A model generated the notes under the pieces. That model had not been told where the DNA came from. It searched no databases and saw nothing but the letters and a program-made list of their open reading frames with translations. Below are positions 8,274 through 64,000 of a stretch of DNA of 64,000 nt, one piece after another. A program made the position numbers and the translations under genes. Numbering within the stretch: position 1 is the stretch's first letter; every line of letters starts with the position of its first letter. The stretch is from NCBI GenBank assembly GCA_964016885.1, contig OZ024757.1, positions 10,788,001 to 10,852,000 of the forward strand, read 5' to 3'. The stretch comes from Eledone cirrhosa (lineage: Eukaryota).

Positions 8274-8304
<31 letters not shown>

Positions 8305-8354
8305 ATGTACGTATGTATGTATATATATATATATATACACATATATATACATAG

Positions 8355-8385
<31 letters not shown>

Positions 8386-8397
8386 CACACGTATGTA

Positions 8398-8441
<44 letters not shown>

Positions 8442-11550: not shown

Positions 11551-11596
<46 letters not shown>

Positions 11597-11826
11597 CACA
11601 CACACAAGAGTATAAAGTGGTTGCGTAGCGTGATAGAGTTGCTGGCACAATAAAATAGACCTTGTTCACTCTGTAAATTAGTCATGATGGTTCCACAGTC
11701 CTCTCTGTAAAGTGGTTGTTATTGAAAACGTCATCCAGCAATGTCTGGTCTCGTTCCATGACAACACAAGCCATCCAGCTAATGTTAGAATGGAACACAG
11801 ATATAAGATGATGATGATGATAGAGA

Positions 11827-13482
11827 CTAGTTTTCCTTTAAATATTGACAATAAAGAGCCTCAAAACATTCTTCTGTCTTTAGAGCTTCTTTCAGAGTGG
11901 CTATGGTGCATTTTTCTGGTTTACAAATTTCACACCATCTGCGTAACATTTGAAAAGCCTGTTTCACAACACTCTTAGGATTGTCATGCTCTATTGTGTC
12001 AAGTTCAATAGCTGGAACTTCTAATTGAATACCTGTAAAATATAAAACAATAAGAAACCAATACTATAACAACAACAACATTAAACAGATTAGTTATATA
12101 AAATATGTATACCACAGGTTGTTGTAAATAACAAAGTAACTAGCTGTAGAGTAATAGAAATAATTAACATAAACATTCTAAAATATTGGTGTATGTTTCC
12201 AAGGATACCGACAAAAATAAAGAAGTTGAAGTGAGGAGAAGAAAGAAGAACAAGATTAAAGAAAATAGAATGGAGAAAATTATGGCAAAGAAATGGCAGA
12301 AGTTTTTGTATTGTCAGAACTGGTTCGGAATTTAAATATCCAACATTGATAACCAACATTCACAACATGTCATCCATAGCAAAGGTTTAAAGGATGAGAT
12401 TGAAGACCCCTCAATAACATCACAAGATCAGTGTCTGAAATAGTCATGTTTCTGCCTAAAATCTACCAAGACATCAATGACAAGTGACAAACATTTCCTC
12501 ATCCTCGCTACTAAATTTAATGGACATGTTGAGTAGCACCAAGATGGCTCTTTTGGAATACATGATGGCTAGAGGTATGGCTTGAGGGATAAAGACTCCT
12601 ACAGTTCTGTGATGTAAATGACTTAGCCATTTGCATCACTAACTTCAAGATATCAGCCAGTCATTTGATCAGGTAGACATACAAGCTAGATTAACTTTAT
12701 TCTCATCAGAAAACAAATAGACAGATGGTTGTGAATATTAAATCTTTTTCCAGAGAAGGAAGCCTTTGGTAGAGAGTGTGGACAAAGGAAGACCATAACC
12801 TTAACAATAAGACTACACCATCTCATAAGACCAAGATGACTGAAGAATGAAGGAAAGAGTAACAATCTCTAGGAATAATGTAGGGTGGTCACACCTGGAA
12901 CACCTTCCATTATAAATCTGCAGATCATGGCAGAACCGAGACTAAATAACAATAACAACCTATCTGTAAATTTAATATGTTTCAATAAAAACAAACAAAA
13001 ACATTCCCATTAACTCACTTGTTTACCCCAATACACCAACAGATTTTTATTCCCTGTTTTAGAAGTTATATTGTGTCTTCTAATTTATCCATTTTTACCA
13101 ATTCAGTTAAAAGTAAACTTTATAGAAACTTTATAGACCCTGAAAAAATATTTCCAAGTTATTCATTTTACTGTAAAGATTTTCTATTCCTGTTAATAAT
13201 CTATATTTTATATTTTCAGACATTCCTATCATCAGAAGGAATGGGAATTGAACTCAGAACCTTATGATCATGAGACAAACACACTAACCACTAAGTCATG
13301 AATGGAAATATACAGACAGATTATCAAATAATTACTTATTAAATTCACCCATCGTACTTATAATCATTCCACATTGGGCACAATTTTCTAATGAAGTACA
13401 ACATATTTCACATGTTACTTTATTTCCACATGGATGGAATGTTATGGTGGCTCCATAAGTGTTACATGTGTGACATACAGCT
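11827..13482 (-). pseudogene. RING-finger + death-domain gene, copy A (exons 13340-13482 and 11827-12032), disabled
   Basis: The RING exon AVCHTC..FHPCGNKVTCEICC..CAQC has its donor mutated GT>AT (13334-13339) and a His>Asn zinc ligand. The 72-nt middle exon of copy B is deleted at ~13135. The last exon GIQLEVPAIELDTIEHDNP..QAFQMLRRW..TIATLKEAL ends in TAG. Confidence 0.75.
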
Positions 13483-13634
13483 CTGTAAAAGGAAATAAAG
13501 ATACAACCCATCAACAACATTAATTTACACCAAATATTACATTATATACAAGTTTACAGAGATTATGTGTGAAGGGTACAACAACCTCTCTAGTATTGGT
13601 GACATGATAAAATACAACCAGTACACTCTGTAAT

Positions 13635-23706: not shown

Positions 23707-23730
<24 letters not shown>
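22302..23730 (+). mobile_element. 5'-truncated CR1/L2-type LINE with (ATT)n tail, inserted in (AT)n
   Basis: DFAKAFNSVPH, QGSVLGPLLF..YINDI, KYADDIKL, VWNPY, TRGH, FF..RV..WNKLP; empty site at 37720-37745. Confidence 0.9.
23295..23533 (+). repeat. Four tandem ~59-bp copies of the CR1 ORF end
   Basis: aaactacctgcatcagttg..gagacactgcatcctttaaaacctccatg repeated four times. Confidence 0.9.
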
Positions 23731-23738
<8 letters not shown>

Positions 23739-25319
23739 GATTTCTATATATCTATACATTGACCAAAGGGATGGCTGAAACAGGTTGACAACAATGATGT
23801 CACAGCTCATCATTTAATGTCCAATCTGATGAGTTCCACTCTAGTTGCTAAGGACTGGGATGTTGAGATTTGTTACAAAAATATCACTAAAACCAAGATA
23901 CTGGGTTGCTCTAACTACCTGGTTTGTATGTGTTGTGGTGTGGTGCAGTATGTGGTGTGGTGTGGTATGATGTGTGTCTGTTGTGTGGGATGGGGTGTGT
24001 ATTGTGGTGTGTGTGTGTGCAGAGTGATGTGTTGTTGTGTGAGTGTAGTGTATAGAGGAAATTTTACAAACATAGTACCTAGAAGGGGTGTGTAAGGACT
24101 CTACCCCGCTACAACCCTCTCAGGAATAAATGGGTGAAGAAAGTTGTAAAGTATTTTCAAATGTGAATTTTTTTTTTTTTAAGTCATAATTTCAACTGTC
24201 ATGAAAGTAACATCCAGCAAATATTAAAGTTATAGAATTGGTTTTATTTACACATAAATGTGGATATTTTGTCATAAATATAAACCAGTTAAGGTTTACA
24301 AAATAATCACATAATTCTTTTGCTTTGTTTTTTAATGATGGAGTCATAAGAATGTCACTGTGGACATTTGAAGCTTGGTGGAGCCCTTCACTCTCCAGGT
24401 TTGAACAGTTGATTTCTTCTAGAGAATGTGAGGGAGGAAGAACAGACCCCAGTGGTAGACTGGTATTGTTTTTTATCAACCTTGAATGGATAAAAGGCAA
24501 AGTTGACCTCAGCAGGATTTAAACTCAGAGAGCAGAGAACCAGAACAAATATGGCAGAAAGCATTCTATCTATTGTTTAAAGACTTTAAGTAACTGTTTC
24601 TACTTTTAACTCAAGTCCAGTAATTGTAAGGGAAGGAAAAAGTTGATTAAATCAACCCCAGTGCATTACTGGTACTTTATTTTACTGAACCTCTGAGGAA
24701 GAAAAGTAAAGCTAACCTCAGGATTTTAACACAGAATGTAAAGGGATGTAACTATATGACACAAAACATATCGTCTGACACTCTACCGATTCTGCAAATC
24801 CACCACCCTCAACAATGAAATGAAGTGTCTCTAAAAGAAACCTTAATGACAAATAATATGAAGTGGAACTTCCTCCAGAGAGTATTTGTGGATTACAATA
24901 CAAAACCTCTGAGAATGATTTCTAACATATTTCACCATAATAAATGTTCAACAATATATATTATTATTATTATTATAATTATTATTTATTAGGTCAGGTG
25001 GATTGGCCAGAACAATTCTACTCTCCTTTTTTGGTTGTCACGATATTCTATGGCATTCCTGAGATCGTTAATCTCCAGCTGGACATCCAGAGACATCTGA
25101 TCTATGTAGGTAAATCTCGGTCATCCCACTAGGGTCTTACTATATTTAGGTATCCACCACAGGAGCCAGCTCATCAGGTCATCCTACCGTCAGTAGCAAT
25201 GTCCAGCATATATTGTCCTCTTCTCCCTAGTTATTGTGGTAATCTTCGATACATGGGAGTATATTTCTTCCACTTGAGTGAGGTATATATACATATATAT
25301 ATACACACATATATATGTT

Positions 25320-26115
<796 letters not shown>

Positions 26116-27749
26116 ATTTCTAGCTAGTGATCTTTACATAAAGGATTCTCACTACTTTTACTTATATATTAAGAAATGTAGATATCGTTAATATATGCTC
26201 TGTAGTCTTATATACAAAGGGTCCATAAAAGACTGCAGAACTTGGCTTTCTTCTTCTACAAAGTTGTAATGTAGCATTTAGTTGGTACAAGTAATAAGAC
26301 ATGTGACAGCCCAACTGATTTTCGACAAATTCAAGCGTATATTATATATATGTAGAATTCAATCAGAGAGAAAGTGTGAGAGAGGGGGGTGGGTGGAGAG
26401 ACGTGTGTGTAGAAATATGTGTGTAGGTGTTGTAATAAATCAAGATATTTCACTTCAGATAGAAAAGTTCACAATGTTTGTGTTGTTGTGGAAAACGAAA
26501 TAATACGTACTTTAGTTGTCAAGACCAAATATAAAGTCAAGAAAAGTTAGTAAAAACTAAATGTTCACTGATTTTTGATTAAAATAATATTTTCCTGTCC
26601 TGTAAAATGTTGAACAACCACTTCAATATTTAATAATACAGGTGATAAAACAACAACTATAAGGTAAATAAGTCACCTTATGTTATTTACAAACATTAAC
26701 GTCCACCTTAATATGAAATAATCACCATAAAAGATAAAATTAGATGAGGTTTAAGTTGTAACAATGGAGCTGATATAAATGGTAATATTTCACCGTCTAG
26801 TTGACACCGGTGTCATGACTTAAAAGTCCCCCACATAATTTAATACATTCAGAAACAACTTCCGTTATATGAACTAGCAGAAAACCACCCGAAGGTAGCA
26901 TGTGTAGTGTGTATATTGATATTATACGCAGGTATATAGGATACATGTATGTATATACCTGCGTATAATATCAATATACAGGTGATAAAACAACAACTAT
27001 AAGTCACCTTATGTTATTTACAAACATTAACGTTCACCTTAATATGAAATAATCACCATAAAAGAGGAAGCGAGGGCATCGGCTACCGGCACCCGGGTTG
27101 CTCTCGGGATTCTGAGTGGGATCTTCCGGTGCCGCCTGAGCCAAGCGAGGCTTGGGTGTCAGGCAAGCTCGTTGTCTCATCTGGTGGTGTGCTAGACGGC
27201 CGTGGCTGGGCAGACGAGGCGAAGAGACAGTTTCAGCTTCTCAACGTTGCGAGGGCACTGGAGGTTTGACGCGTCAAGCTAACACAGTTCCAGACCCTCT
27301 ATTTGTGGTGTTGCAGGTGTCGACTGGTGGGAATGGAGGATGGGGCGTGGGGCACCAAGCAGCGTCAGGGGTGAGTGGCTGGTTGTCACCAGCCTAGGTG
27401 GTAGGCACAACTGTGTGGGTGGAAGGGAAAATGCTGATAAGAGGGCCTCATAGCTCACCTACATCAGATATGGAGGTATCAGAAGACAAGAGAGAAAAGA
27501 AGGGGGTGCATGGATGGGGGGGGGGGACACAAGAAGGTAGAATGTTAGCAAATAAATAAATGAATGAAAGGATGAATATACAAAAAAGAAAACAAGGGCT
27601 TGTTCCCAGCAGGAAGACCCAGAGTTCAGCACGCACACATGCGAGCATGTTAGCAGTTTCTCATAGAACCTTGTGGCTAAAGGTGAGTCTTTCAATCCTG
27701 AAAACATATGTGTTGTTGTTATTGTCACTGATGCTGGAGTTGGTTTCCT

Positions 27750-28035
27750 CTTGTTAATGGTAGTGTTTGCTGGTAAGTTGTTGGTGTATACACATATGTT
27801 GTTGTTGTTATTGTCACCGCTGCTGTTGCTGCCTTCCTCTCGTTAATGGTAGTGTTTGCTGGTAAGTTGTTGGTGTATACACATATGTTGTTGTTGCTAT
27901 TGTCACCGCTGCTGTTGCTGCCTTCCTCTCGTTAATGGTAGTGTTTGTTGGTAAGATGTTGGTGTATACACATATATGTTGTTGTTGTTAATGTCACTGA
28001 TGCTGTTGCTGCCTTCCTCTTGTTAATGGTAGTGA
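27750..28035. repeat. ~89-bp tandem repeat, 3-4 copies
   Basis: gttaatggtagtgtttgctggtaag..gctgttgctgccttcctctc repeated. Confidence 0.85.
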
Positions 28036-30228
28036 TAATTGTTGGTGCTACCTATATCGGCTGCTCTATCAGCTTCTGTCAGTGATGCTCCAATGGCCTT
28101 CTTGACCAAAGATGCAGGTCAATGGCTTTTAAATAAATATATTCTCTATTTTTTTTCTTTCTTTTTAATCCAATTCAATATCATCAATTGGAAAGACCAA
28201 TGGAAACATTGTTTCCTTGGTCCAATCTGATGAGTTCCACTCCACTTGGTAAGTAAGAACGAAGATGTTGAGATTTGTTACCAAAAAATCACTAAAATCA
28301 AGATACTGGGTTGGTATAGCTACCTGGTTTGTATGTGTCTGTTGTGGTGTGGTATGGTATGTGGTATGTTGTGGTGTTTGATGTGGTTTGGTGTGGTATG
28401 TGGTGTGGCATAATGTGTATATTGTGGTGTTTTGATGCGGTGTGTGTGTGTGCAAGGTGATGTGTAGTGTAAAGAGCAAACTTTAGACACATTGGACCTA
28501 GAAGGGGTGTGTGAGGACTCTACCCCCTACAACCCTCTCATAAATAAATGGCTGAAGAAAAAGAAAGTTGTAAAGTATTTTTAAATGTGAATTATTTTTT
28601 TAAAAAGTCAAAATTTCAACTGTCATGAAAGTACCATCCAACAAATATTAAAGTCATGCAATTGTTTTTATTGTGGATATTTTATTGGGGATATTTTGTC
28701 ATAAATATAAATATAAACCAGTTAAGGTTTACTAAATAAACACATACAAACACATCAATGTTTTTTTTTTTAATTGATGTAGTCGTATGGGTGGAACTGT
28801 GGACATTTGAAGCTTGGTGGAGCCCTTCACTCTCCAGGTTTGAACAGTTGATTTCTTCCAGAGAAGGAGAGAGAATGAGAGAGAGGAAGTGAGATAGAAA
28901 TATAGAGAGGAAGAACAGACCCCAGTGATAGACTGGTATTGTATTTTTATTAACCTTGACTGGATGAAAGAAAGTTGACCTCAGCAGGATTTAAACTCAG
29001 AGAGCAGAGAACCAGGATAAATATGGCAGATAGCATTCTATCTATTGTTTTATAGACTTTAAATAAATGTTTCTACTTTTGATTCAAGGCCAGCAATTTG
29101 AAGAGAAAGGGGAATGCCAATTAAATCAGGCCCAGTGCATTACTGTTACTCTTTTTTATCAACCTTAAATGGATTAAAGTCAAAGTTGACCATGGCATGA
29201 TTTAAACATAGAACATAAAGGACTGTAACTTTATGACACAAAGCATATTGCCTGACACTCTACTGATTCTGCAAATCCACCACCCTCAACAATGAAATGA
29301 GATTGTGTCTTTGTAATAGCCCTTAATGACAAATAATATGAAGGGGTACTTTCTACAGGGTGTATTTGTTAATTACAATACAAAACCTCTGAGAATGATT
29401 TCCAACATATTTCACCATAATAAATGTTCATCAATATATATATTAATATTATTATTATTTTCTGCTAGCATGTGTAGTGTGTATATTGATATTATACACA
29501 GGTATATATACATGTAGATATGATACATCAAATAAAATCGTAATTGACAATATATAATACACAGAAATTGAACAAGGACTGTGTTACACTGTCTTATTTA
29601 ATCAGTAATGTAATCCACGATACATTAAAAAAGACGATATTATATATAAACTGCATTAGGAGAAAATTAGTGACGGAAATATATGAATGTTTATTTAAGC
29701 AATGGTTAACCGGAAGTGTTGACATTTCAGAAATTTTAAAGAAGTGAATCTTTAAATAAACAAAATATATTTAATCAACATCCACGAAATTTAGTAGATA
29801 AATTATGTAATATTCATTCATTATTTATTCAAAGTAATGCAACTTATTTTACTAATGGGATAAAAAATTATAAACCGTACACAGACCCATGCTCCTTACT
29901 TTTTTATAGTTTAGATTTGTTAGGTCAGGTGGATTGGCCAGAACAATTCTACTCTTCTTTTTTAGATGTCACGATCATCCATGGCATTCCTGAGATCATT
30001 AATCTCCAGCTGGACATCCTGAGACATCTCAGTCATCGCTCTAGTGTCTTACAATGTTTAGGTATCCACCACAATAGCCAGCTCATCCTACGCCCAACAG
30101 CAATGTCCAACATATCTTGTCCTCCGCTCCCTAGTTATTGTGGTAATCTTTGATATATGTCAGTATATTTCATCCCTGTGAGTAATGTATTCAAAACTAA
30201 AAATAATAATATATATATACACACACAA

Positions 30229-30889
30229 AAAAATAAGAAATAAGAGGGATCAGATGTTGTTTACTCGAGAGAAGGCTACGTTGGTATGGACACGTGATGC
30301 GCATGAAAGTCGATAGCTGTATAACAAAGTGCAGGGCAATAAAGATAGACGGTAGCCACGGAATAGGCAGACCTAGAAAAACCTGGGACGAGCTGATAAA
30401 CTCCGACCTCACACACTTATACCTCTCCAAGACAATGTCACTGGACCGAGACCTTTGGCGGTACTCAGTAATAGAGAAGACCCGCCTTACCTAAATACAT
30501 AGTAAAACCTACTACAGCCAGTAGGCATCTCTAACAAAATACACCCCCGTCTCACCACCCTCACCCCATCCACACCACCCCCTCCTATGTAAAGTTATGT
30601 TGGTGCCACACCATCCAGGCCGAAACAAATGAGATCGTGTAGGTGTCACGACAAAAAAACACACAGTCCACGCTGTAATGTGGCCATGTAGGCAACACGG
30701 TAAAAACCTCCCAGACCCACACTGTAAATGTGGTTGGTGTTAGGAAGGGCATCCAACTGTAGAAAACCTGCCAGACAGTCCTATGCAAGCAAGACAATCA
30801 CTCTTGCCTCAAGTGGGAATACCCCCGTCCAAACCCATGCAAGCGTGGAACACGGACGTTAAACGTTGATGATGATGATGATGATGATG
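30229..30889 (+). mobile_element. 5'-truncated young RTE copy, near-identical to the intact element, with 8-bp TSD
   Basis: Matches the reverse complement of 13635-14265; TSD acacacaa at 30221-30228 and 30890-30897; empty site at ~25295-25325. Confidence 0.9.
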
Positions 30890-30974
30890 ACACACAACAT
30901 ATATGTTGAGATGTATAAGATTTCTCAAGCTTCACATTTTATATTCTGACTTCCAAAGTGTGTCTATATATTTG

Positions 30975-31842
30975 TGTTTTTCATATTTCACAGCGATGGG
31001 GTTTACCGCAAGTGTTGACTACGTAGGTGAACAACCAGTGACGAATTCTCAGTGAAATATTTACCTCATATTTTACATGAATGAGGTCTTTCACCAGTAT
31101 GTATTCTTTTGAGAGGTTCAAGTTGAGAACTGCGAGAAAAAGATTTACCACATATTTCACAATGGAAGGGTTTTTCTCCATTGTGTTCTTTTGTGACGTA
31201 CAGGATCAGAATTACTAGAAAAAGATTTACCACATATTTCACAATGGAAGGGTTTTTCACCAGTGTGTATTCTTTTTTGATGTTCAAGAGGAGAACACTG
31301 AGAAAAAGATTTCCCACATATTTCACAATGGAAGGGTTTTTCACCTGTGTGTGTTCTTTTGTGATGTTCAAGATGAGAACTCTGAGAAAAAGATTTCCCA
31401 CATATTTCACAATGGAAGGGTTTTTCACCAGTGTGTGTTCTTTTGTGTTGTAAAAGATGGGAACTACGATAAAAGGATTCCCACATATTTGACAATGGAA
31501 GGGTTTTTCACCAGTGTGTGTACTTTTGTGGACGACAAGAACAGAATTATTAGTAAAAGATTTCCCACATATTTCACAGTGGAAGGGTTTTTCACCAGTG
31601 TGACACCGTATGTGGATGACAAGAACAGAATTATTAGTAAAAGATTTCCCACATATTTCACAGTGGAAGGGTTTTTCACCAGTGTGACTCCGTATGTGGA
31701 TGACAAGAGCAGAATTATTAGTAAAAGATTTCCCACATATTTCACAGTGGAAGGGTTTTTCTCTGTGTATTTTCTCATGTGAGGATAGTTTCAGTTTTGA
31801 AGAGAAAGTTTTCCCGCAAATCTCACAGCTATATTCAGACAT
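30975..31842 (-). pseudogene. Tandem C2H2 zinc-finger gene copy 2 (~10 fingers), frameshifts near 31475 and 31180
   Basis: ORFs 31066-31842 and 31157-31495 carry CEICGKSF..H...HTGEKPFH repeats in alternating frames. Long-read indel errors cannot be excluded. Confidence 0.85.
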
Positions 31843-32702
31843 ATTTCATAAAGGAATCTCACCACTTCCACTCATATATTAAGAAATGTAGCATTCAGTT
31901 GGTAAAGTAATAAGACATATGACAGCATAAGACTGATCTTGGAAGAAGTAGAAGCAAGTGCTAATATATATATATATATATATATATATAACGTGTGTGT
32001 GTGTGTGTATTTTTTATTTTTGTTAAGGTGAGAGAAGCTCTATTCACAATAACATCCTCAGCTCATAAAACAGACGACTCAGTCTTCTATAGTTAAGGTT
32101 CTTGTTATTGAGGACAGTTCAGGTGACAAGAGAATTAATATCCATGATTTCAAAAGATGAAGGTTAATATATATACATATATATATACAGACATACAGTG
32201 TGTAGGTATGAGAGAGAGAAATAGACGTGTGTGTGTGTAGAAATATGTGTGTAGGTGTTGTAATAAATCAAGATATTTCACTTCAGATAGAAAAGTTTAC
32301 AATGTTTGTTGTGGTGGAAAACGAAATAATACGTACTTTAGTTCTCAAGATCAAATATAAAGTTAAGAAAAGTTAGTAAAAACTAAATGTTCACTGATTT
32401 CTGATTAAAATAATATTTTCCTGTCCTGTAAAATGTTGAACAACCACTTCAATATTTAATAATACAGGTGATAAAACAACAACTATAAGGTAAATAAGAC
32501 ACCTTATGTTATTTACAAACATTAACGTCCACCTTAATATGAAATAATCACCATAAAAGATAAAATTAGATGAGGTTTAAGTTGTAACAATGGAGCTGAT
32601 ATAAATGGTAATTTTTCACCGTCTAGTTGACACCGGTGTCATGACTTAAAAGTCCCCTACATAATTTAATACATTCAGAAACAACTTCCGTTATATGAAC
32701 TT

Positions 32703-37720: not shown

Positions 37721-39333
37721 ACACACACATATATATATATGATTTCTATATATCTATACATTGTTGTCCAAAGGTATGGCTGAAACAGGTTGACACCAAT
37801 GATGTCACAGCTCATCATTTAATGTCCAATCGGATGAGTTCCACTCCACTTGCTAAGGTCTGGGATGTTGAGATTTGTTACAAAAGTATCACTAAAACCA
37901 AGATACTGGGTTGGTATAACTACCTGGTTTGTATGTGGTGTGGTGTGGTTTGGTGTGTGGTGTGGTATGTTGTGGTTTGGTATGTGTTGGATGTGGTGTG
38001 GTGTGGTATGTGGTGTGGTGTTGTATGATGTGTGTCTGTTGTGTGGGATGGGGTGTGCATTGTGGTGTTTTGATGTGGTATGTGTATGTGTGTGTGTGCA
38101 GAGTGATGTGTTGTTGTAAAGAGGAAATGTTACACACATAGGACCTAGAAGATGTGTGTGAGGACTCTACCCCCTACAACCCCCTCAGAAATAAATGGCT
38201 GAAGAAAAAGAGAAGAAAGTCGGAAAGTATTTTCAAATGTGAATTATTTAAAAAAAAGTCATAATTTCAACTGTCATGAAAGTACCATCCAACAAATATT
38301 AAAGTTATAGAATTGTTTTTATTTACACATAAATGTGGATATTTTGTCATAAATATAAACCAGTTAAGGTTTACAAAATAAACACATAATTCTGTTGTTA
38401 ATTTTTTTAATGATGTAGTCATAAGGGTGTCACTCTGGACATTTGAAGCTTGGTGGAGCCCTTCACTGACCAGGTTTGAACAGTTGATTACTTCCAGAGA
38501 AGGAGAGAGAAGGAGAGAGAGGAAGTGAGAAAGAAATATAGAGAGGAAGAACAGTCCCCTGTGGTAGACTGGTTCTTTTTTTTATCAACCTTGAATGGAT
38601 GAAAGGCAAAGTTGACCTCAGCAGGATTTAAACTCAAAGATCAGAGAACCAGAACAAATATGGCAGAAAACATTCTATCTATTGTTTTATAGACTTTAAA
38701 TAACTGTTTCTACTTTTAACTCAAGGCCAGTAATTGTAGGGGAAGGAGAAAGTTGATTAAATCAACCCCAGTGGATTACTGGTACTTTATTTTACTGAAC
38801 CTGTGAGGAAGAAAAGTAAAGCTAACCTCAATAGGATTTTAACACAGAATGTAAAGGGATGTAACTATATGACGCATCGGCTGACACTCTACTGATTCGG
38901 CCAATCCACCAGCCTCAACAATGAAATGAGATTGTGTCTCTGTAAGAGCCCTTAATGACAAATAATATGAAGGGATACTTTCTACAGGGTGTATTTGTTA
39001 ATTACAATACAAAACCTCTGAGAATGATTTCCAACATATTTCACCATAATAAATGTTCATCAATATATATTAATATTATTATTATTTTCTGCTAGCATGT
39101 GTAGTGTGTATATTGATATTATACACAGGTATATATACATGTAGATATGATACATCAAATACAATCGTAATTGACAATATATAATACACAGAAATTGAAC
39201 GAAGACTGTGTTACAATCTCTTATTTAATCAGTAACGTAATCCATGATACATTAAAAAAAGACGATTATATATAAACTGCATTAGGAGAAAATTAGTGAC
39301 AGAAAATTAATATGTTTATTTAAGTGATTGCCA

Positions 39334-40036
39334 CCGGAAGTGTTGACATCACACACTCTCTCTTTCTATATATATGGTAGTTGAAGTGGTGGTGGTGGTG
39401 GCAATGATATACCGGAAGTGTTGACATCACACTCTCTCTTTCTATATATATGGTAGTGGAAGTGGTGGTGGTGGTGGTGGTAATGATATACCGGAAGTGT
39501 TGACATCACACTCTCTCTTTCTATATATATGGTAGTGGAAGTGGTGGTGGTGGTGGCAATGATATACCGGAAGTGTTGACATCACACACTCTCTATTTCT
39601 ATATATATGGTAGTTGAAGTCGTGGTGGTGGTGGTGGCAATGATATACCGGAAGTGTTGACATCACACTCTCTCTTTCTATATATATGGTAGTTGAAGTG
39701 GTGGTGGTGGTGGTGGTGGCAATGATATACCGGAAGTGTTGACATCACACTCTCTCTTTCTCTATATATAGTAGTGGAAGTGGTGGTGGTGGTGGTGGTA
39801 ATGATATACCGGAAGTGTTGACATCACACTCTCTCTTTCTATATATATGGTAGTGGTGGTGGTGGTGGTGGCAATGATATACCGAAAGTGTTGACATCAC
39901 ACTCTCTCTTTCTATATATATGGTAGTGGATGTGGTGGTGGTGGCAATGATATACCGGAAGTGTTGACATCACACTCTCTCTTTCTATATATATGGTAGT
40001 GGATGTGGTGGTGGTGGCAATGATATACCGGAAGTG
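39334..40036 (+). repeat. Minisatellite of 73-82-bp units, each starting with CCGGAAGTG (10 motifs, 9 perfect)
   Basis: Motif starts at 39334, 39412, 39491, 39567, 39648, 39730, 39809, 39882 (variant), 39955 and 40028. Confidence 0.92.
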
Positions 40037-44817: not shown

Positions 44818-44890
44818 TCATATGTATGTTTATATATATATGGACGTTAAACGATGATGATGATGATATATATATATATATATAGAAAAC

Positions 44891-46188
44891 ATGAATATAA
44901 AATGAAAGTGCTTTCATAAAGGAATTTATTAGGTATTGACATATGTTTCTGTAACAGACGGAATACCTATGTATCGCTGCTTGCGTAATCATATAATGTT
45001 AGCAAGTATTCGATAGCAAATGTATAAACAGTTGTCACTTCTTCAGAGATATTGGATAAATTGGAAAAAAATCAGAAAAATTGAAGTATTTATATTAGTT
45101 GTAAGAAAGGAAGAAGAGAGGGGATAGTATATGACAGATGGCAATTCAATTTACTGGTAAACAAGTATATAGAAGGTTTAACCTAAAATGGGATATAATA
45201 GTGTCTGCTCCTGCATATCCCAAGGACAGGAATTTTGTAAATTGTGTAATATGGAATTATTTTGTATTATGAAATCCAAAAATATTTTATTAAATAACAG
45301 AATAGAGCGATCGTTATACTGTAACCATCGTTTGAAATCTACATTTTCATATTACAAACGCTACCAGGATTGAACGCCTGTCTCCATCTCCGTTTGATTG
45401 TCAAAATACATATTAACATTCTCTATTACTCTTAACTCTATCAACTCTTCTATTCTTTACCATTTAATATAAACTGCTATAGATAAAATGAGATTTCTTA
45501 ATTCAATGCCCTAATGCATATACCAGCAGGCTACCAGCATTGTTGTTATACAGTAGCAGTGAAAACCTCCCTCTTCCTTAATTGACACTTTATATCTGTA
45601 TTAATACTACTACACCAAACGACCAGCCCTGTCCATTGTTCATTGGTTAAATATAGATTAAAATAGGCACCCCTAAAAATTCTTATTTAGATAAAATAAG
45701 CCATGTACTCATTGTATTCTCATTAAAAACCTTCTATATACTTGATTACCAGTAAATTGAATTGCCATCTGTCATATACTATCCCCTCTCTTCTTCCTTT
45801 CTTACAACTAATATAAATACTTCAATTTTTCTGATTTTTTCCAATTTATCCAATATCTCTGAAGAAGTGACAACTGTTTATACATTTGCTATCGAATACT
45901 TGATAACATTATATGATTACGCAAGCAGCGATACAGAGGTATTCCGTCTGTTACAGAAACATATGTCAATACCTAATAAATTCCTTTATGAAAGCACTTT
46001 CATTTTATATTCATCTTTTCTACATTTTCTCCGGAATATAATTTATACTCGTTGAGCAAACCTACACGCACGCTGTTCATCTCTAACGTGACGATATATT
46101 ATCACTACATTATTGATAACTTGAAATTTTAATATATATATATATATATTTATATATATGTATATATATATATAGACTCATATGTATG

Positions 46189-46259
<71 letters not shown>

Positions 46260-46605
46260 ATATATATGAGTGTATATATATATACATATATATAAATATA
46301 TATATATATTAGAATTTCAAGTTATCAATAATCTAGTGATAATATATCGTCACGTTAGAGATGAACAGCGTGCGTGTAGGTTTGCTCAACGAGTAGAAAT
46401 TATATTCTGGAGAAAATGTAGAAAAGATGAATATAAAATGAAAGTGCTTTCATAAATGAATTTATTAAGTATTGACATATGTTTCTGTAACAGACGGAAT
46501 ACCAATGTATCGCTGCTTGCGTAATCATATAATGTTATCAAGTATTCGATAGCAAATGTATAAACAGTTGTCACTTCTTCAGAGATATTGGATAAATTGG
46601 AAAAT
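44891..46605 (+). mobile_element. 5'-truncated Penelope-like element (Neptune-type GIY-YIG C-terminus) with inverted pseudo-LTR and a further inverted tail copy
   Basis: 45181-45373 encodes NLKWDIIVSAPAY / CKLCNMELFCIM..LLNNRIERSLYCNHRLK. 44891-45180 is the reverse complement of 45728-46014; 46305-46605 is the reverse complement of 45838-46135. Confidence 0.75.
45854..45971 (+). ncRNA. Hammerhead ribozyme with ~80-nt stem II insertion (mirror copies at ~44932-45050 and ~46468-46586, minus)
   Basis: CTGAAGA(45859) a gtgaca..tgttac a GAAAC(45956) atat GTC; palindromic ACATATGT stem III; stem I weak. Confidence 0.6.
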
Positions 46606-46615
46606 ATATATATAT

Positions 46616-47184
46616 ATAAAGTATTAAAAAAATAATGAATAAAACAATGAAACAGTTCCTTATATTAAACAAAAAAAGTTCATTATTTAACGATCGTTTC
46701 TAGGACATATATGTGTTAGAATTGGCATGCATATTCAACAGATCTATGTACAAAATTATACAAAATTATACAAACTATCAAATCTAATATACATACCAAC
46801 ACATACATATGCCGTCTTCAGAAATAATGAAATATATTTATTGATAATAACAACAATTCAAAATTACAGGTCTGTTTGGGAACAGAGTTCAAATTGACCA
46901 ATGAAATACACAAAAATATATCGAGAAAATACAGTTAGGTGTGTGTATATATGTAAGTAACTTCGTTCACAGATATGCATAAGAATATATGCTCACATGC
47001 ATACGCATGTCGAAAAAATGTATGCAAATACAAACATTCAGGGCTAATGTCTCTGTATGTTTATAATCTACAGATAAAATACACATACGTATATAAACAT
47101 ATATACACACTCATATATACACACACATATACATACATTCACGCACACACGCGCATATACACATAAACATACACATACCCACGA

Positions 47185-47243
<59 letters not shown>

Positions 47244-47465
47244 TATGTATATATTATTATTATAACTACATGGATATTAAGGCACACACACAAAAACACT
47301 GCCACTTACATCTATATGCAGAAGATGGTGAAGGGGTTCAGTAATTACTAAGGGTGTCATAACTGCCTATTTATAGAATGTATCTATAAATTTAGAAATA
47401 AAAAGAAATATATAAAAAAAATAATAAACAAATAAAATATATACTCATACATAAAATACACACCG

Positions 47466-47497
<32 letters not shown>

Positions 47498-48155
47498 ATA
47501 CACACATATATACACATACATATACATACACACACACATACATACATATATACACGCACACATACATACACATATACTTAGAGACACATACACATACATA
47601 TATAAATACATAGACACACATGCATACACACATATATATATATACATATATTCTCAACACACGTATATATATACAGATATATGTACACACATATATACAC
47701 AGATACATATTAATAGTATACTTATATTAAAATGCATAATTTTGCCTTCTTTCTTACATTTCTTAATACTAAAACTAATATGTAAACACATATTATGATC
47801 TAAATGCAGATTAATATTCTTATTTACTATTTCCCACTAATAATTTTAATCCCCTTACCCCCCCCTATAATTATTTGTATTTGTAAGCGTTGATGTATGT
47901 ATGTGTATGTAAGTAGGTATGTATGTTTGAGTGTTTGTATGTGAGTATAAAAATACATATGTGCGCATGTAAATAAGTGTGTATGTCTATATATATATAT
48001 ATATATATGTATATGTATATATATATGTATATATATGTATGTATATATATGTGTATGTATATGTGTGTGTATGTATATGTCTATGTATATATATGTGTGT
48101 ATGTATATATGTATGTGTGCGGGTGTATGTGTATATATATTTGTAGAGATGTGTG

Positions 48156-48209
<54 letters not shown>

Positions 48210-48277
48210 CATAATTGTCTGACTGTGTGTATTTATTTATTTATTTTTTTCTTTATATATATATATAGGTGTGTGTG

Positions 48278-48348
<71 letters not shown>

Positions 48349-48399
48349 ATGTATGTGTGTGTGTGTATATGTGTATGTATATTTATGTGTATGTATATA

Positions 48400-48458
<59 letters not shown>

Positions 48459-48895
48459 ATGTATATCTCTTTATTTATGTATGTCTGAGTTGTGTGAATG
48501 TGTGGTTGTATGTGTACATACATACATGGATACGTGTGTATGTGTGTATATATACGTGTATATATATGTGTGAGTGTGTGTGTATATATATATGTGCGTG
48601 TATGTGTATATATATGTGTGTATATATGTGTGTATATATGCGTGTATATATATGTGTGTGTATGTATATATGTATATGTATGTATCTGTGTATATATGTG
48701 TGTACATATATCTGTATATATATATGTGTGTTGAGAATATATGTATATATATATATATATATATGTGTGTATGCATGTGTGTCTATGTATTTATATATGT
48801 ATGTGTATGTGTCTCTAAGTATATGTGTATGTATATGTGCGTGTATATATGTATGTATGTGTGTGTGTATGTATATGTATGTGTATATATGTGTG

Positions 48896-48961
<66 letters not shown>

Positions 48962-49186
48962 TGTATTTTATGTATGAGTATATAATTTATTTGTTTATTA
49001 TTTTTTTTATATATTTCTTTTTATTTCTAAATTTATAGATACATTCTATAAATAGGCAGTTATGACACCCTTAGTAATTACTGAACCCCTTCACCATCTT
49101 CTGCATATAGATGTAAAAATGTAAGTGGCAGTGTTTTTGTGTGTGTGCCTTAATATCCATGTAGTTATAATAATAATATATACATA

Positions 49187-49231
<45 letters not shown>

Positions 49232-49931
49232 TCGTGGGTATGTGTATGTTTATGTGTATATGCGCGTGTGTGCGTGAATGTATGTATATGTGTGTATATA
49301 TATGAGTGTGTATATATGTTTATATACGTATGTGTATTTTATCTGTAGATTATAAACATACAGAGACATTAGCCCTGAATGTTTGTATTTGCATACATTT
49401 TTTCGACATGCGTATGCATGTGAGCATATATTCTTATGCATATCTGTGAACGAAGTTACTTACATATATACACACACCTAACTGTATTTTCTCGATATAT
49501 TTTTGTGTATTTCATTGGTCAATTTGAACTCTGTTCCCAAACAGACCTGTAATTTTGAATTGTTGTTATTATCAATAAATATATTTCATTATTTCTGAAG
49601 ACGGCATATGTATGTGTTGGTATGTATATTAGATTTGATAGTTTGTATAATTTTGTATAATTTTGTACATAGATCTGTTGAATATGCATGCCAATTCTAA
49701 CACATATATGTCCTAGAAACGATCGTTAAATAATGAACTTTTTTTGTTTAATATAAGGAACTGTTTCATTGTTTTATTCATTATTTTTTTAATACTTTAT
49801 CTTGACTCTGTATTCCGTTTATCTTTCACCGAAAGTGATTTTTGAATGCATCTCTTCTTTCCATGATATCCTGATTACATTGAGTTCTTCATACGGATTG
49901 GACACTACCGTAAACTCTTGGTAGATTTATC

Positions 49932-56780: not shown

Positions 56781-57512
56781 TGATGCACATGAAGGATGAC
56801 ATCTGTATAAAAAGGTACAGGGAACTCGAGGCTGTAGGGTGCCTCAAAAGAGGAAGACCTAAGCAGAAGTAGGATGTAATGACAAAAGGCCAACCTGGCT
56901 CAGCTGAACCTCTCAATGGAGATGGCACAGGACTGAGATCTCTGGTACTACAACATACAGCAAAGGACCAGAGTGAACCTCACGAGGTGCAAGGCATCGT
57001 GCGGCCAATTGGCCTGACATCCCTCATAATGGGACCTCTCAGCTCCCAAAATACGGTTCCCCTGTGAGCAGGGTACAGCGAGGCCAGCTGGCCAGACATT
57101 CCCCATAACAGTGCCACCCAGTTCCACACTGTAAAAGTGGTGGGTACTAGGAAGGGCATCCAACAACTGTAAAGACACAGCCACTCTATAGTCAAAGCAT
57201 GAGAGAACTGAGAGAGAAACTAGGCATAAGAGGGATCAGACGGCAAAACACGTATATGTATGTGTATGTATATATATATGTAAACTTTTATATATATTTG
57301 TATGTATATATTTGTGTGTGTGTATACAGAAATAATATATACACTACTTAATTATATATATATATACAACATATCAAAATAAATCAAATAAATTTAACAA
57401 ACGACTGAATCTACCAAAATAGAATATTTTATTTATTTATAATTTGCTGATAAACAATATTTTTGGTAAAAGTAATTCTCTTTTTCACACGTTCTTTCTT
57501 TCCATCCTTTTT

Positions 57513-57601
<89 letters not shown>

Positions 57602-57802
57602 AGGGTATAAAGTGGTGGTGTAGAGTGAGAGTTGCTGCCACAATAAAATACACCTTGTTCACTCTGTAAAGTAGCCATGAGGGTTCCACAATAAAATGCT
57701 CTGTAAAGTGGTTGTCATTGAAAACGTCATCCAGCAATGTCTGGTCTCGTTCCATGACAATACAAGCCATCCAGCTAATGCTAGAATGGAACACAGATAT
57801 AA

Positions 57803-57835
<33 letters not shown>

Positions 57836-57840
57836 AGAGA

Positions 57841-60800
57841 CTAGTTTTCCTCTGAATCTAGACAACGAAGAGCCTCAAAACAATCTGCTGTCTTTAGAGC
57901 TTCTTTCAGAGTGGCTATGGTGCATTCTCCTGGTTTACTAATTTCACACCATTTGAGTAACATTTCAAAAGCCTGTTGGCCAACATAATAAGGAATGTTA
58001 CACCTGATTTTTCTCAGTATATAAGCTGAAACTTCTAATTGAATACCTGTAAAATATAAAACAATAAGAAACCAATACTACAACAACAACAACAACAACA
58101 TTAAACAGATTAGTTATATAAAATATGTATACCACAGGTTGTAAATAACAAAGTAACTAGCTGTAGAGTAACAGAAATAATTAACATAAAAATTCTAAAA
58201 CATTGTTGTATGTTTCCAAGGATACCGACAAAAATAAAGAAGCTGAAGTGAAGAGAAGAAAGAAGAACAAGATTAAAGAAAATAGACTTGAGAAAATTAT
58301 GGCAAAGAAATGGCAGAAGTTTTTGTATTGTCAGAACTGGTGCAGAATTTAAATATCCAACATTGATAACCAACATTCACAACATGTCATCCATAGGAAA
58401 GGTTTAAAGGATGAGATTGAAGACCCCTCAATAACATCTCAAGATCAGTGTCTGAAATAGTCATGTTTCTGCCTAAAATCTACCAAGACATCAATGACAA
58501 GTGACAAACATTTCCTCATCATCATCATCATCATCATTTTACATCCTCTTTTCCCTGCTTGCAAGGGTGGGATGGGTCCTATTCATCATCTCTCCATTTG
58601 ACACGGTCCTTGGTCATCTACTCTTGTGAGCTTCAGCGATCTGAGGTCAGCTCTCACCACCTCTCCCCATGTTTTTTTGTGGTCTTCCTCTACTGTGTCT
58701 TCCTTCCACTGGAATTTCTTGGCACTTCATTACTCAGCAGTCATCACACATCCATACCAACACAGTCTTCTCTCCTGCACACTACATCTTATCCCACTTA
58801 TACACAGTTTCTCTCTCAACTCGTCTATGCTGTGTCATTCACACACATTGACATTGCACATCCAACGGAGCATGCTTGCCTCATTTCTCTCCGGCCGTCA
58901 CATTTCCTCCACAGTTGCTGCCCATGCCTCACTACCATGCAGCATCACACATCTCACACAGCCATCATATAACCAGCATTTCGATTGTAGGGAGAAACCC
59001 TTCATTGTCAGCAGAGGAAGCATCTCCCTAAACTTCTTCCAACCCGTCCTTATTCTAGATACTACGGCCTCGGAACACCCTCATCCCATGCTAATCTAAT
59101 CACCTAGGTATCAGAAACTATCAACTACCTCTATAGATCCTACCTGCATTTGAAAAATCTCTGTCAAATTTCTGTCAATCTCTGTCAAATTTCCCTGTAC
59201 ATCTACTGCATACGTATTTCTCCCTACCTGTCAGTTTTCCTGCTATCCCACTACATCCCTTGTGTACCCAAGATCTGCCTTGTGAACATTCTATAGAATT
59301 TATGCCAACTCCTTTTCTGCATAGCGAACATGGCCATTTCCCTGACAGAATCAGAGTTTTGTCCTCTCTTCTACTTATACACACTTTTGTCTTAGATAGG
59401 TTCACTCTCAGTCTTCTTGATTCCAACTACTGTTTCTATACCCAGAATTTATTCTCTAGCCTCTCTACGGATTCTGCTATAAGAACCAGATCGTCAGCAT
59501 AGAGAAGTTCCCATGGACAGCCAGTCTTAAACTCCTCTGTTATGGCTTGGAGGACTATAATGAACAAGAGCGGACTGAGGACCGAACCCTGATGTACACA
59601 TACTTATATCTGGAATTTCTCACTAAACTCCATTCCTACTCTCACTTTACTGACAGCACCCCTGTACATAGCTTTCACTGTCCTCACAAGCCATTCCCCT
59701 ACACCTAGTTTCCTTAGGGACCACCAGATGACAGATCGGGGTTCTCTATCAAAGCCTTCTCTAGGTCAACAAAAGCTAAGTATAGAGCTTATTCTTCTCT
59801 AAGAACCTCTCTTGTAGTTGTCTCACTAAAAAGAGGGCATCCTTGCTGCTAAATTTAATGGACATGTTGAGTAGCACCAAGATGACTCTTTTGGAGTACA
59901 TGATGGCTAGAGGTATGGCTTGAGGGATCAAGACACCTACAGTTCTGTGATGTAATTGACTTCAAGATATCAGCCAGTCATTTGATCAGGTAGACATACA
60001 AGCTAGATTAACTTTATTCTCATCAGAAAACAAATAGACAGATGGTTGTGAATATTAAAATGTTTTCCAGAGAAGGAAGCCTTTGATAGAGTGTGGACAA
60101 AGGAAGACCATAACAATAAGACTACACCATTGGATAAGTCAAAGATGACCGAAGAAGGAAAGAGTAACAATCTCTAGGAATAATGTAGGGTGGTCACACC
60201 TGGAACACCCTCCATTATAAATCTGTAGATCATGGCAGAACCAAGACTAAATAACAATAACAACCTATCTGTAAATTGAATATGTTTCAATAAAAACAAA
60301 CAAAAACATTCCCATTAACTCACTTGTTTACCCCAATACTCCAACAGATTTTTATTCCCTGTTTTAGAAGACAATATTAGTTATATTGTGTCTTCTAATT
60401 TATCCATTTTTACCAATTCAGTTAAAAGTAAACTTTATAGAAATCAACAAGATATTGTAATCTTATACTCACCAACTTCAAACCATTTTCCTCCTAATTG
60501 TTTTGCTACCTTCCATAGGACTTTCTCTCTAAGATTTTGAGACCCTGAAAAAATATTTCCAAGTTTCTTCATTTTACTGTAAAGATTTTCTATTCCTGTT
60601 TATAATCTATATTTTATATTTTCAGACATTCCTATCATCAGAAGTCAACTAGTGATCACAATGGCTTTAGTCAATATTTTCTCTTCTTGTTATATCAGGT
60701 CATATCTGAGTATTTAGGCCCACAACAAAATATGTTAAACTTTATAAATATTTTTTATCTATAAAAACATCTTATATTACATTATTGTAATTATCTCATT

Positions 60801-62154
60801 CCACTATCAGCTGATTATACATGTTTTTCTCATAGCTTTGTCTTTCACTTATGCCAAATCTACAATATAGCATCACTGTCCTCTCATCTCTGTATTTTAC
60901 TAATAAATATTCTGTTTATTTTCTTCTTAATTCAAATATCAGCCAAGTTGGTTATCAAAGACCTAGCCACAAATTCCTGATAGCCTACATGAAATAGGAG
61001 TAGATACACCTGCTTTCCTTGAGAAAGGTCGATGTTGGCAATCTTTAGTTTAAACTGACCACATCTGTGTTTACCAGAATGTCATCTGATTCATGTAATA
61101 TTTACAAATATTTACATGTCATGTGTCCTCCTTAATGATACAGGATCTTATCGGTGAGCACTGATTATTCTATACAGGTTAGAAGGAAAGTGATAACAGG
61201 TGTCCTAAAACACTGTACACTTACACAAATCCTCATTAGCTACCTTTAACAAGTCATATTTACATTAATGCTGTGAAAATATCTGAAAGGGATCCATGAA
61301 CTGACCCCAACATTATAAATTATCTCCTACAGACCCCTATATAAATAAATCATAGTTTCTCAAATCTTTGCTGACCTCTCCATCAATACAGTGGACATCA
61401 GTAGCGGGAGAAGCCAACTACCTGAAAATTTGAGGAAGTAGAAGTTACACCTGTCTTTTAGACATCTGTCAGTTCTAACAATGAGTGTTCCAATTGTTTG
61501 AATAACAGAACAGTTTACTCATGTAATTAAGGTGCAAATGGCTGAGTATTCCACAGACATGTATACCCATAGCGTAATTCTCAGGGAGATTCAGTATGGC
61601 ACAGTGTGTGACAAAGCTGATCATTTTAATTACAGGTACAGTCCATATTGTGCTATAGTGAGAGTGGCTGAGTATTCCACAGGCATATGTTCTCTTAACG
61701 TGATTCTAAGGGAGATTCAGTGATATGTTGTATGTGATATAGCTGGCCCATTGAATTACAGTAACAATAACGGTCGCCATTATTATAATTCTCAGGGAGA
61801 TTCAGTATGAAACAAAGTTGGCCTTTAGAATTACAAATACAACTCATTTTCCCATCTAAGTAGACTGAAGTAACATGATATAAGGTGTCTTGCTCAAAGA
61901 TACAATATGTTCCTGGGAATTGAACTCAGAACCTTACGATCATGAGACAAACACACTAACCACTAAGTCATGAATGGAAATATACAGACAGATTATCAAA
62001 TAATTACTTACTAAATTCATCCACCGTACATACAGTCATTCCACACTGTGTACAATGTTCAATTGTGGAACAACATTTTCCACAATCAACTTTATGTTGA
62101 CATGGAGTGGATGTATTGGTGGCTTTATTAATCTGACATGGGTGACATACAGCT
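57841..62154 (-). CDS. 3' exons of a RING-HC + death-domain gene, copy B (exons 62012-62154, 60473-60544, 57841-58046); probably an E3 ligase or immune adaptor, upstream exons not located
   Basis: All three exons have AG acceptors; both internal introns have GT donors and consistent phase 1. Product: AVCHPCQINKATNTSTPCQHKVDCGKCCSTIEHCTQCGMTVCTVDEF-R-SQNLREKVLWKVAKQLGGKWFEVG-IQLEVSAYILRKIRCNIPYYVGQQAFEMLLKWCEISKPGECTIATLKEALKTADCFEALRCLDSEEN*. The VA..LG..W / QA..ML..W / T...L..AL pattern is death-domain-like. Confidence 0.8.
58519..59838 (-). mobile_element. 5'-truncated RTE LINE in the last intron of copy B
   Basis: RT and PHD homology (ELLYADD, CSLCRKGVG), (cat)n tail, short catc duplication; empty site at ~12495-12515. 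Confidence 0.88.
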
Positions 62155-64000
62155 CTGTAAAAGAAAATAAAGATACAACTCACCAACAACATTAATTTAC
62201 ACCCAATATTACATTGTATACAAGTTTACAGAGATTATGTGTGAAGGGTACAACAACCTCTCTAGTATTGGTGACATGATAAAATACAACCAGTACACTC
62301 TGTAATGTGGTTGGTAATAGGAAGGGCTTCCTGTCATACAAAACTTTCCAAACAAAGGATAGAAAGGATTCTGTAGTGGTTTCAAAGACATGACAACATC
62401 CCTAGTGCTGGTGCCATGATTAAATCAGCAGTGCATTTCATGATGATGATGATGATTTATAATAAAGGGTGGGATTTGAACTAAGAACGTTCAGGGCCAT
62501 AACTCTATGCTGCAAAGCATGGTGTGTGACGCTCTACTGATACTGCCAATCCATAATAATAATGAAAATTATTGTGTACAATGCTCAGGTGCACTACAAC
62601 TCATCAAAGGTGCATGTATTGTACATAGAGTAATGTAGAAATATCAGGAAAGTGAACAGTGATTGAGTCATGATATACACACACACATGCGTGCATGTAT
62701 GGAGGTGTGAACATCAGGTGTAGTGTTGGAGAATTTCAGGAAGGATGGAGGTGTTAAAGGATGCAGTGTCCTGACAGCTAACAACTGATGCAGGTAGTTG
62801 GTTCCATGCTTCAGTAACTCTGAGCATGAAAAGATGTTTCTGAAAGTCATGGGGTCTGTACTGGTTTCCTGCTATTTCTTGGCTTAAAGCAGAAATCAGT
62901 TGTCGAACTTCTGCAACTTCTGTATTGAGGGTCTATTTTTGTTGTTGTTGATGTTCTTCAACAGGAATGGTAGGGGAAGACATGGTAGTTGGATTGTGTT
63001 GTTGTTCAACAACAATGGTATAGGAAGACACACATGCCAGGGACTGAAAGGACCAATTTGGTAGCTGCACCTTTTCCTAGAATCCATCCATCATCGAAAT
63101 ATGGTGTCTCTTTTTTGACCTGGGATCTTTGGAAAGTTTATGGCACATTGAAAACAGAGAGAAACATGACATTTACCACATTGAATCTATCTATTTTGGA
63201 AATAGTTCTTGGGTTCGGTACATAGATGACAGACGTGATTTTCCTGGCAATCTTCTATTTTGGGACAGTGAACAGTTTTATTACACACACCTCATCTATG
63301 GATGTCACTATAGCAATTATGTTCTGTCTGTCCATCCATACAATACAACAATAGTTAAACAAATAGATATGTCTAAGTATAGCACACTTGTTAAGGAGAT
63401 CAATAAAATATATTTTCTTTCTGTTTTCCTATTCTACGTGTGTGTATATAAAAAGATCTACACATGTATATATAATTAAGAGATGTATATAGGCTAGAAA
63501 TGAAGTCTATATCCAGAGTTTATAATGTAGGTACGATAGTTACTATAGTTTCTCACACACGGAACAGGATTCCCTTGCACGTTCTGTGTGTAGGTATATA
63601 TATATGTGTGTGCGTATGTATATATATATATATTGGTAAACGGAATAGAAAATGCTGACAAATTGTTCACAGTTGAAAAATGGTTTAATTAGGAATAAAA
63701 GAGTATTAGTGACTGTATGGGTTAGTATTCAGTTGTGGTTTTAAGTTTTTAAGTTTTTACCTGTTGCGCATTTCTAAATGCTTTTCAAAAATAATTTTGA
63801 GATAGAGTGTCCGTGTTGTTTGCTCTGATCTGATTAGTTTTGGGAGTTCTACCTGTTTTTATGTTAAAAAAGTGGCTCCAGCGTTACTTTGGTGTTGCAA
63901 AAATTCTTGTGGTCAAAACAATTTTGATTGGTCGGTAGAGGTCATGTGAATGTAAAAAATTGATTTTGCGCCAAGACTGTTTTTATGTTAAAAAAGTGGC

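Follow-up and report, generated by a model that had tools for sequence, protein, structure and literature searches.

Truncated copies of an octopod ankyrin–RING–death gene family in the genome of Eledone cirrhosa

Introduction

TRIM5, LRSAM1 and the plant XB3/XBAT proteins are sensor-E3 (ubiquitin ligase) proteins, in which a variable or repeat recognition domain is combined with a RING; to our knowledge, none of them carries a death domain. Other described systems with comparable parts are the Mind bomb proteins MIB1 and MIB2, the RIPK1/Imd-like RHIM-death adaptors and the HNWD NLRs of the fungus Podospora. The concave face of ankyrin repeats is their binding site, according to the available text of PMC8229355 and PMC8683736. 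Here we describe two related gene copies, A and B, in the octopod Eledone cirrhosa, and the ankyrin–RING–death family to which they belong. Both lie in the window, by which we mean the whole stretch of 64,000 nucleotides analysed (C18:10788001-10852000, contig OZ024757.1 of the 3.0-Gb genome), where self-comparison shows A (11316–13634) and B (57278–62306) to be homologous blockwise.

A first-pass annotation of the window had noticed that the RING and death-domain exons of A and B differ strongly within near-identical introns, and had proposed a rapidly diversifying, possibly immune family of ubiquitin-ligase/death-domain genes. The observation is real and its interpretation was partly right; the ankyrin repeats, which are the site of the clearest selection, had been overlooked. 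The detection of intracellular infection by cephalopods is poorly known, and the family offers named, testable candidates for this role.

Results

Gene family

A complete gene of the family starts with E1, where the start codon lies, followed by E2, by E3, which is a large ankyrin exon, and by a RING, a middle and a last exon. E1-E2-E3-RING is a phase-symmetric module, and two such modules stand in tandem in the C26 and C27 15.05 genes. Eight of the 27 death-exon loci examined possess the full ankyrin set with open frames; C27 has six of them, C26 has one, and another lies at C18 12.63-12.64 Mb. All eight loci with E1, E2 and E3 have open frames and GT/AG splice sites. The genome contains at least 35 matches to the death exon, nine of them within one retrocopy array, and at least 29 matches to the RING exon. 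This multiplicity of intact and broken loci bears out the proposal of a birth-and-death gene family.

The spliced form of a family gene is established by an intronless processed copy at C1:208684000-208690200, which runs from ankyrin repeats through RING, middle and last exon to a poly(A) tail and is frameshifted. This copy also attests the spliced transcripts that the first-pass annotation had wished to see. It is followed by a tandem array of units of about 325 bp, each consisting of a joined middle and last exon. Intact genes begin with the E1 methionine directly ahead of the ankyrin repeats, the sequence 5' of E1 being partly covered, and no signal peptide or membrane segment was evident when the intact translations were read by eye.

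The presence of RING and Death domains is confirmed by Pfam profiles. Zf-C3HC4_3 matches all 11 RING exons (best E 1e-7), and Death matches 12 of 20 death exons at E<=0.1 (best E 2e-6). The exons of A and B taken alone score under the curated cut-off, the last exon of B reaching only E 0.15 against Death, and full-length relatives exceed the curated Death cut-off. The RING alignment profile matches the RINGs of XIAP and cIAP, and the death-domain profile matches those of PIDD, FADD and RIPK1. The predicted model of one relative, P0129, contains a helical death domain with a predicted local distance difference test score (pLDDT) of about 80-93; the Pfam match and a six-helix bundle place the family in the death-domain superfamily. 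The last exon of B alone gave a poor model (pLDDT 63), which matched no structure in a fold search, and the same kind of search with the P0129 model gave ankyrin structures only, among the matches listed.

Searching 1.84 billion proteins with the family profile gave 62 hits. Of the 30 looked up, 25 come from Octopus or Argonauta and are mostly auto-named MIB1/MIB2-like, four are weaker (coral, amphioxus, sea-star) and one is nameless. Ankyrin repeats are combined with a RING and/or Death match in 14 of the 32 relatives scanned. The 11 Eledone copies compared form one clade (100/100) to the exclusion of those from Octopus, which indicates a lineage-specific expansion. Word-index protein searches returned no match for the death exon and generic ankyrin proteins only for the ankyrin exon. 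No description of an ankyrin–RING–death family was found in the open literature as far as its accessible text goes, and supplementary tables or subscription papers may list it.

Several further loci were recorded. E2-like matches on C1 (217 Mb) and C10 and an ankyrin stretch on C25 were rejected as isolated or broken pieces, having no RING or death exons within 20-30 kb. A large tandem segmental array at C28:124.72-125.33 Mb carries at least 17 frameshifted middle-exon fragments about 37 kb apart. Another tandem array, at C12:9.024-9.048 Mb, has 22 matches to E2 and its flanks with a period of about 1 kb, and could be a satellite or an ankyrin-exon array. In the intron ahead of E3, in the C27 13.03 region (L161, about 7000-8900), reading by eye revealed a Helitron-type helicase-like fragment on the opposite strand, an insertion that appears common to the C27 copies.

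Selection on the ankyrin repeats

The strongest signal of selection lies outside the window, in the ankyrin repeats, on their predicted binding face. This face was defined by repeat positions 2, 3, 5, 10, 13, 14 and 33, which we take to be the binding positions used in the design of ankyrin repeat proteins (DARPins). For seven intact modules of the short type, the one-ratio model M0 gives an omega of 7.3, and M2a is preferred to M1a with twice the log-likelihood difference (2dlnL) at 99; the three modules of the long type were excluded from the ankyrin tests. A tree-free count in the six C27 genes found 68.5 non-synonymous (N) against 3.5 synonymous (S) ankyrin variants (density ratio 6.0, p=5e-5). 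All 3.5 synonymous variants sit in codons that also change the amino acid, and in the six genes the flanks differ by 0.3-1.1%. Variable positions make up 22 of the 33 predicted binding-face positions and 26 of the 134 others (p=4e-7), which points to positive selection on a predicted ligand-binding face.

This signal does not name the opponent. The diversifying selection could come from a non-pathogen conflict, such as self/non-self or gamete recognition or the control of selfish elements. Fungal repeat sensors with a like evolutionary pattern act in allorecognition, according to the available sections of PMC13449251, and truncated copies of our family lie among C2H2 zinc-finger exons. The intact translations, in which no secretion signal or membrane anchor could be seen, and a death domain from a RIPK1/Imd-like adaptor lineage (see below) argue against such a role, and we regard it as unlikely.

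Window copies A and B

The exons of both copies lie on the minus strand with AG acceptors, at the positions given for them in the first-pass annotation. The RING exon of B (62012–62154, 143 nt, phase 2 to phase 1) is of module-1 type and keeps all eight C3HC4 ligands. The coding part of its last exon (57841–58046) encodes death-domain helices 3-6 and ends in the stop TAG. Between these two correctly identified exons, a 72-nt middle exon (60473–60544, phase 1 to 1, helices 1-2) had been missed; in the C1 retrocopy its counterpart is spliced to the last exon. The 3' untranslated region (UTR) of B occupies 57411–57840 on the same strand, with AATAAA near 57428, and the poly(A) of the retrocopy starts at the equivalent of B position 57411. 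All three exons of B are open and have canonical splice sites. The RING exon of A (13340–13482) is of module-2 type; its donor GT has become AT and, while its cysteines are retained as had been reported, the histidine ligand is lost (H20N). The middle exon of A is reduced to a 5-nt remnant (13135–13139), the remaining part and its donor being deleted, and its last death-domain exon (11827–12032) has an open frame in a copy that is itself broken.

Both copies are fragments of the ankyrin–RING(C3HC4)–Death family with the 5' part missing. No match to an ankyrin exon, E1 or E2 was detected in the window and the adjoining 99 kb, and the genome-wide E2 search placed E2 on this contig in two places only, both at 12.6 Mb. 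The intron 5' of the B RING exon (62155–63633, minus strand) is common to intact genes. Farther 5', outside the window at about C18:10853940, a fragment of a long interspersed nuclear element (LINE) abuts a microsatellite, the one that follows E3 in intact genes. As this junction is common to seven copies including B, it indicates a single origin. Copy A retains intron sequence starting about 40 nt past the long-type E3 of module 2. Seven truncated copies, including A and B, lie near C2H2 zinc-finger exons, suggesting a spread by segmental duplication.

Both window copies are probably dead fragments, contrary to the earlier picture of A and B as diversifying genes in working order: neither has ankyrin exons and A is broken. 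Stops, frameshifts or lost exons affect 13 of the 19 copies without the full ankyrin set and none of the eight complete ones (p=0.002). In 12 of the 13 damaged copies a lesion falls in the RING, middle or last exon, and in one only in a broken E3. Copy B could nevertheless be a working ankyrin-less gene, encoding either a RING-death protein or, from a methionine late in the RING exon, a regulator with the death domain only, with a distant or borrowed 5' exon and with selection acting directly on B-type copies. Its open exons, splice sites and complete RING ligands suit such a gene. B and five other ankyrin-less copies (six of 19) show no disabling lesion in their retained exons, and 32 of the 82 shared death-exon variants are confined to truncated copies. 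CARD-only inhibitors exist, as the accessible part of PMC8403095 states. The damage to most ankyrin-less copies speaks against a working B, and the private variants of truncated copies look neutral, with densities of 0.116 for N, 0.155 for S and 0.139 for introns. We therefore consider a working B improbable.

The contig evidence leans the same way. None of the runs is registered as RNA; X1 and X4 consist of contigs of unrecorded kind, and depth was not used for ranking expression. In one X4 contig the middle exon directly follows a short RING exon, as in a spliced product of intact genes of the C27 14.45/15.05 type; this junction is not among the X1 joints listed. The X4 contigs aligned to B match best C27 13.72, 14.45 and 15.05, at 15 of 16, 13 of 15 and 13 of 16 listed variants, respectively, and carry a 112-bp deletion common to these three. 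They hint at transcription of intact genes and show nothing certain for B. That the contigs and the one listed RING-middle junction are of intact C27 type counts against a working B, with the proviso that contigs show presence, not absence.

RING and death exons within homogenised introns

The differences reported between A and B were reproduced: 23 of 47 amino acids in the RING exon and 26 in the death exon, the latter out of 67 rather than 68, as the stop had been included. Two purely synonymous codon differences were confirmed in each exon, together with the ELDTIEHD / ILRKIRCN switch in the death domain. Nucleotide divergence is 24.8% in the RING exon and 18.9% in the death exon, and the near-identical flanks differ by 2.3% of 220 bp and 3.1% of 385 bp, respectively. 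With pathways through multi-hit codons counted, the A-B proportions of synonymous and non-synonymous differences (pS and pN) are 0.18 and 0.27 for the RING exon, where synonymous divergence is therefore high as well, and 0.07 and 0.22 for the death exon. The pattern extends across the family: compared with other copies, B differs by 2.0-5.8% in its unique introns, but by 4-29% in its middle exon and by 7-23% in its death exon.

The supposed hypervariability of the RING exon is not supported; the exon exists in two module types, to one of which A belongs and to the other B, and identity to B among the B-like copies is 85-96%. Between the types, pS is 0.23 and pN 0.26. In the intact C26 gene, modules 1 and 2 differ by 2.1-2.9% in introns and by 32% in the RING exon. 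The RING gap between A and B is thus an old dimorphism in homogenised introns and not a site-wise arms race. The RING of the six intact C27 genes further contains a 36-nt unit in one to seven tandem copies, always in frame, in the first zinc-binding loop.

The death exons are patchworks of shared blocks with a strong recombination signal (incompatibility test, none of 2000 permutations as low). Different blocks are found in copies that have the same truncation junction; exon variants therefore moved between copies once these had been truncated. For this exon, M0 gives an omega of 1.3 and M2a against M1a a 2dlnL of 28.6, with omega 3.6 on 22% of sites; this value exceeds all 25 simulations under a mosaic null (maximum 20.8), which covered coarser mosaics only. 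The selected sites lie in helix 3, helix 4, the 4-5 loop and helix 6, as placed on the P0129 predicted model, and most of these surfaces are assembly interfaces named in the available text of PMC8403095. Positive selection on the death domain is moderately supported. The positive selection that had been expected in the family was thus found, by site models on the death exon and the ankyrin module and by tree-free ankyrin counts. C6 (stop) was excluded from all death-exon tests and C18_12.60 also from the tree-free variant counts; C18_5.29 (frameshift) was left out of the codon alignment and RING exons other than 143 nt out of the RING counts.

Synonymous shared variants are also denser in the RING, middle and death exons than in introns, which goes some way against the first-pass interpretation. 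This would fit an explanation without selection, in which old module types or exon haplotypes persist as their divergence blocks conversion, or cDNA-templated conversion moves exons only, while introns are homogenised. The C26 modules described above fit this well for the RING, and the retrocopy proves reverse transcription of a family mRNA. The cDNA route should raise both death-exon fourfold sites and the 3' UTR, whereas these are near the intron level (4.5% and 5.5% against 3.1% in the intron, with 15.3% for the whole death exon). The excess of replacements clustered on the ankyrin binding face is unexplained without selection, so that for ankyrin exons this explanation is contradicted; overall we give it very little credence.

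Death-domain origin

In the tree, octopod RIPK1-like death domains form the sister group of those of the family (96/82). At C24:15350239-15359295, a VQIG sequence, which we take to be a RHIM-like motif, lies upstream of a two-exon death domain, making this locus a candidate RIPK1/Imd-like adaptor, provided that its exons form one transcript. The intron in the C24 death domain falls at the same codon and in the same phase 1 as the boundary between the middle and last exons of the family.

Other features of the window

The last intron of B contains a LINE-like insertion (58524–59837), detected by self-comparison, which 16 of the 26 projected copies carry and A lacks. High diversity inside this LINE proved largely a projection artefact and falls to 5.9% among the 16 true carriers. 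Upstream of A lie two degenerate C2H2 zinc-finger exons on the minus strand (25395–26133 and 31069–31845, spanning 25395–31845), duplicated together with the blocks 23730–24976, 28220–29725 and 37732–39349; further degenerate ones occur at C18:10860120-10860563. The region 44880–49800 holds long inverted repeats (44880–45179 with 45727–46025 at 98%; 46616–47709 with 48679–49800 at 95%), which are probably DNA transposon ends.

Discussion

We think it fairly probable that A and B are headless fragments of an octopod ankyrin–RING–death family whose intact members are likely to act as intracellular sensors. An immune function of the family is inferred. The fast-changing ankyrin face would bind variable foreign targets, the ligands presumably being pathogen proteins. 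In members that keep an IAP-type RING, ubiquitination would relay the signal, and the death domain would assemble, through the interfaces described in the consulted part of PMC8403095, with FADD-, CRADD- or RIPK1-like partners, leading to NF-kB or caspases. PMC11463336 reports both FADD and CRADD from a cephalopod. Near-identical introns would allow recombination among copies, keeping them alike, while selection in working genes would maintain divergent exon variants that recombination may carry into dead fragments such as B.

Several observations weigh against this reading. The ankyrin tests used six or seven sequences and site models of our own coding, in which branch lengths were fixed except for their scale. 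Recombination inflates site-model tests, and two of the 25 mosaic nulls gave values above 9.2. In tree-free counts the N/S density ratio is about 1 in the RING, middle and death exons; for shared death-exon variants, N is 0.415 and S 0.357 per site (p=0.66), the flank density of 0.086 being below both. Among the eight intact genes the mean death-exon pN of 0.131 is not above the pS of 0.145. The death-domain tree took only sequences found by the family profile, over 91 columns. The undamaged ankyrin-less copies have been mentioned above. Finally, in-frame loss of RING zinc ligands affects three of the eight intact genes (the His/Cys pair, in the C27 genes with 36-nt units), and two carry a 19-residue stub as second RING; such in-frame losses and stubs were not scored as lesions. 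Consequently, ligase activity cannot be general, and the core function may lie in sensing coupled to a death-domain output.

A further, tentative possibility is that octopods possess cytosolic receptors independent of NLRs, built from a DARPin-like ankyrin sensor, a RING and a RIPK1/Imd-derived death domain and expanded lineage by lineage. Headless copies of the B type would then form a silent archive of death domains, shuffled into working genes by recombination and thereby changing signalling partners or escaping pathogen inhibitors.

That the window copies are probably dead lowers the interest of these coordinates, not that of the family. Eight intact genes have ankyrin faces that change almost only by amino-acid replacement, and the database label ‘MIB2-like’ conceals them. 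The family also offers a clean case of divergent exons kept within homogenised introns.

By their defining domains, the family members are not Mind bomb, IAP or NLR proteins. Like Mind bomb (MIB1/MIB2), they have ankyrin repeats followed by a zf-C3HC4_3 RING, and mib1-like and MIB2 clusters are among the Atlas look-alikes of their ankyrin-RING part. Unlike Mind bomb, they have one RING per module and a C-terminal death domain, and are multi-copy and fast-evolving. Of the N-terminal MIB_HERC2/ZZ/MIB repeat region that characterises Mind bomb, the MIB_HERC2 domain had no match in the 32 relatives scanned; its matches in the genome fall on C24, C4, C14 and C28 (79 and 94 Mb), none of them close to the family loci, and a word-index search with the last-ankyrin-RING region returned no true Mind bomb. 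No BIR match was found in the same relatives and the intact exons encode ankyrin, RING and death only, unlike an IAP; nor was NACHT or NB-ARC found in these relatives or in the intact exon chain, as an NLR/STAND protein would have. With RIPK1/Imd-like RHIM-death adaptors, the family shares sister death domains interrupted by the same phase-1 intron, but it shows no RHIM or kinase, has an ankyrin-RING head and exists in many copies.

The nearest architectural analogue found is P0206 of the snail Physella acuta, with ankyrin repeats, zf-C3HC4_3 and a CARD, a different death-fold domain arranged on the same principle. As in sensor-E3 proteins, a recognition domain is fused to a RING, and XBAT33-like clusters occur among the Atlas look-alikes. 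As in DARPins (PMC8229355, in the text available), variation is located on the concave binding face; DARPins are engineered, whereas the family is natural and germline-encoded. The fungal HNWD NLRs, as portrayed in the accessible text of PMC13449251, likewise have a few hypervariable binding positions, subject to diversifying selection, in an otherwise near-identical background, and exchange sequence between paralogues with the participation of pseudogenes. They differ in that the homogenised parts of our family are introns and not repeats, and in that a RING stands between sensor and effector. The family thus likely represents diversifying intracellular receptors, a variant without known description in the open literature, and by analogy it would work most like repeat-sensor death receptors, such as the fungal HNWD NLRs, and sensor-E3 proteins.

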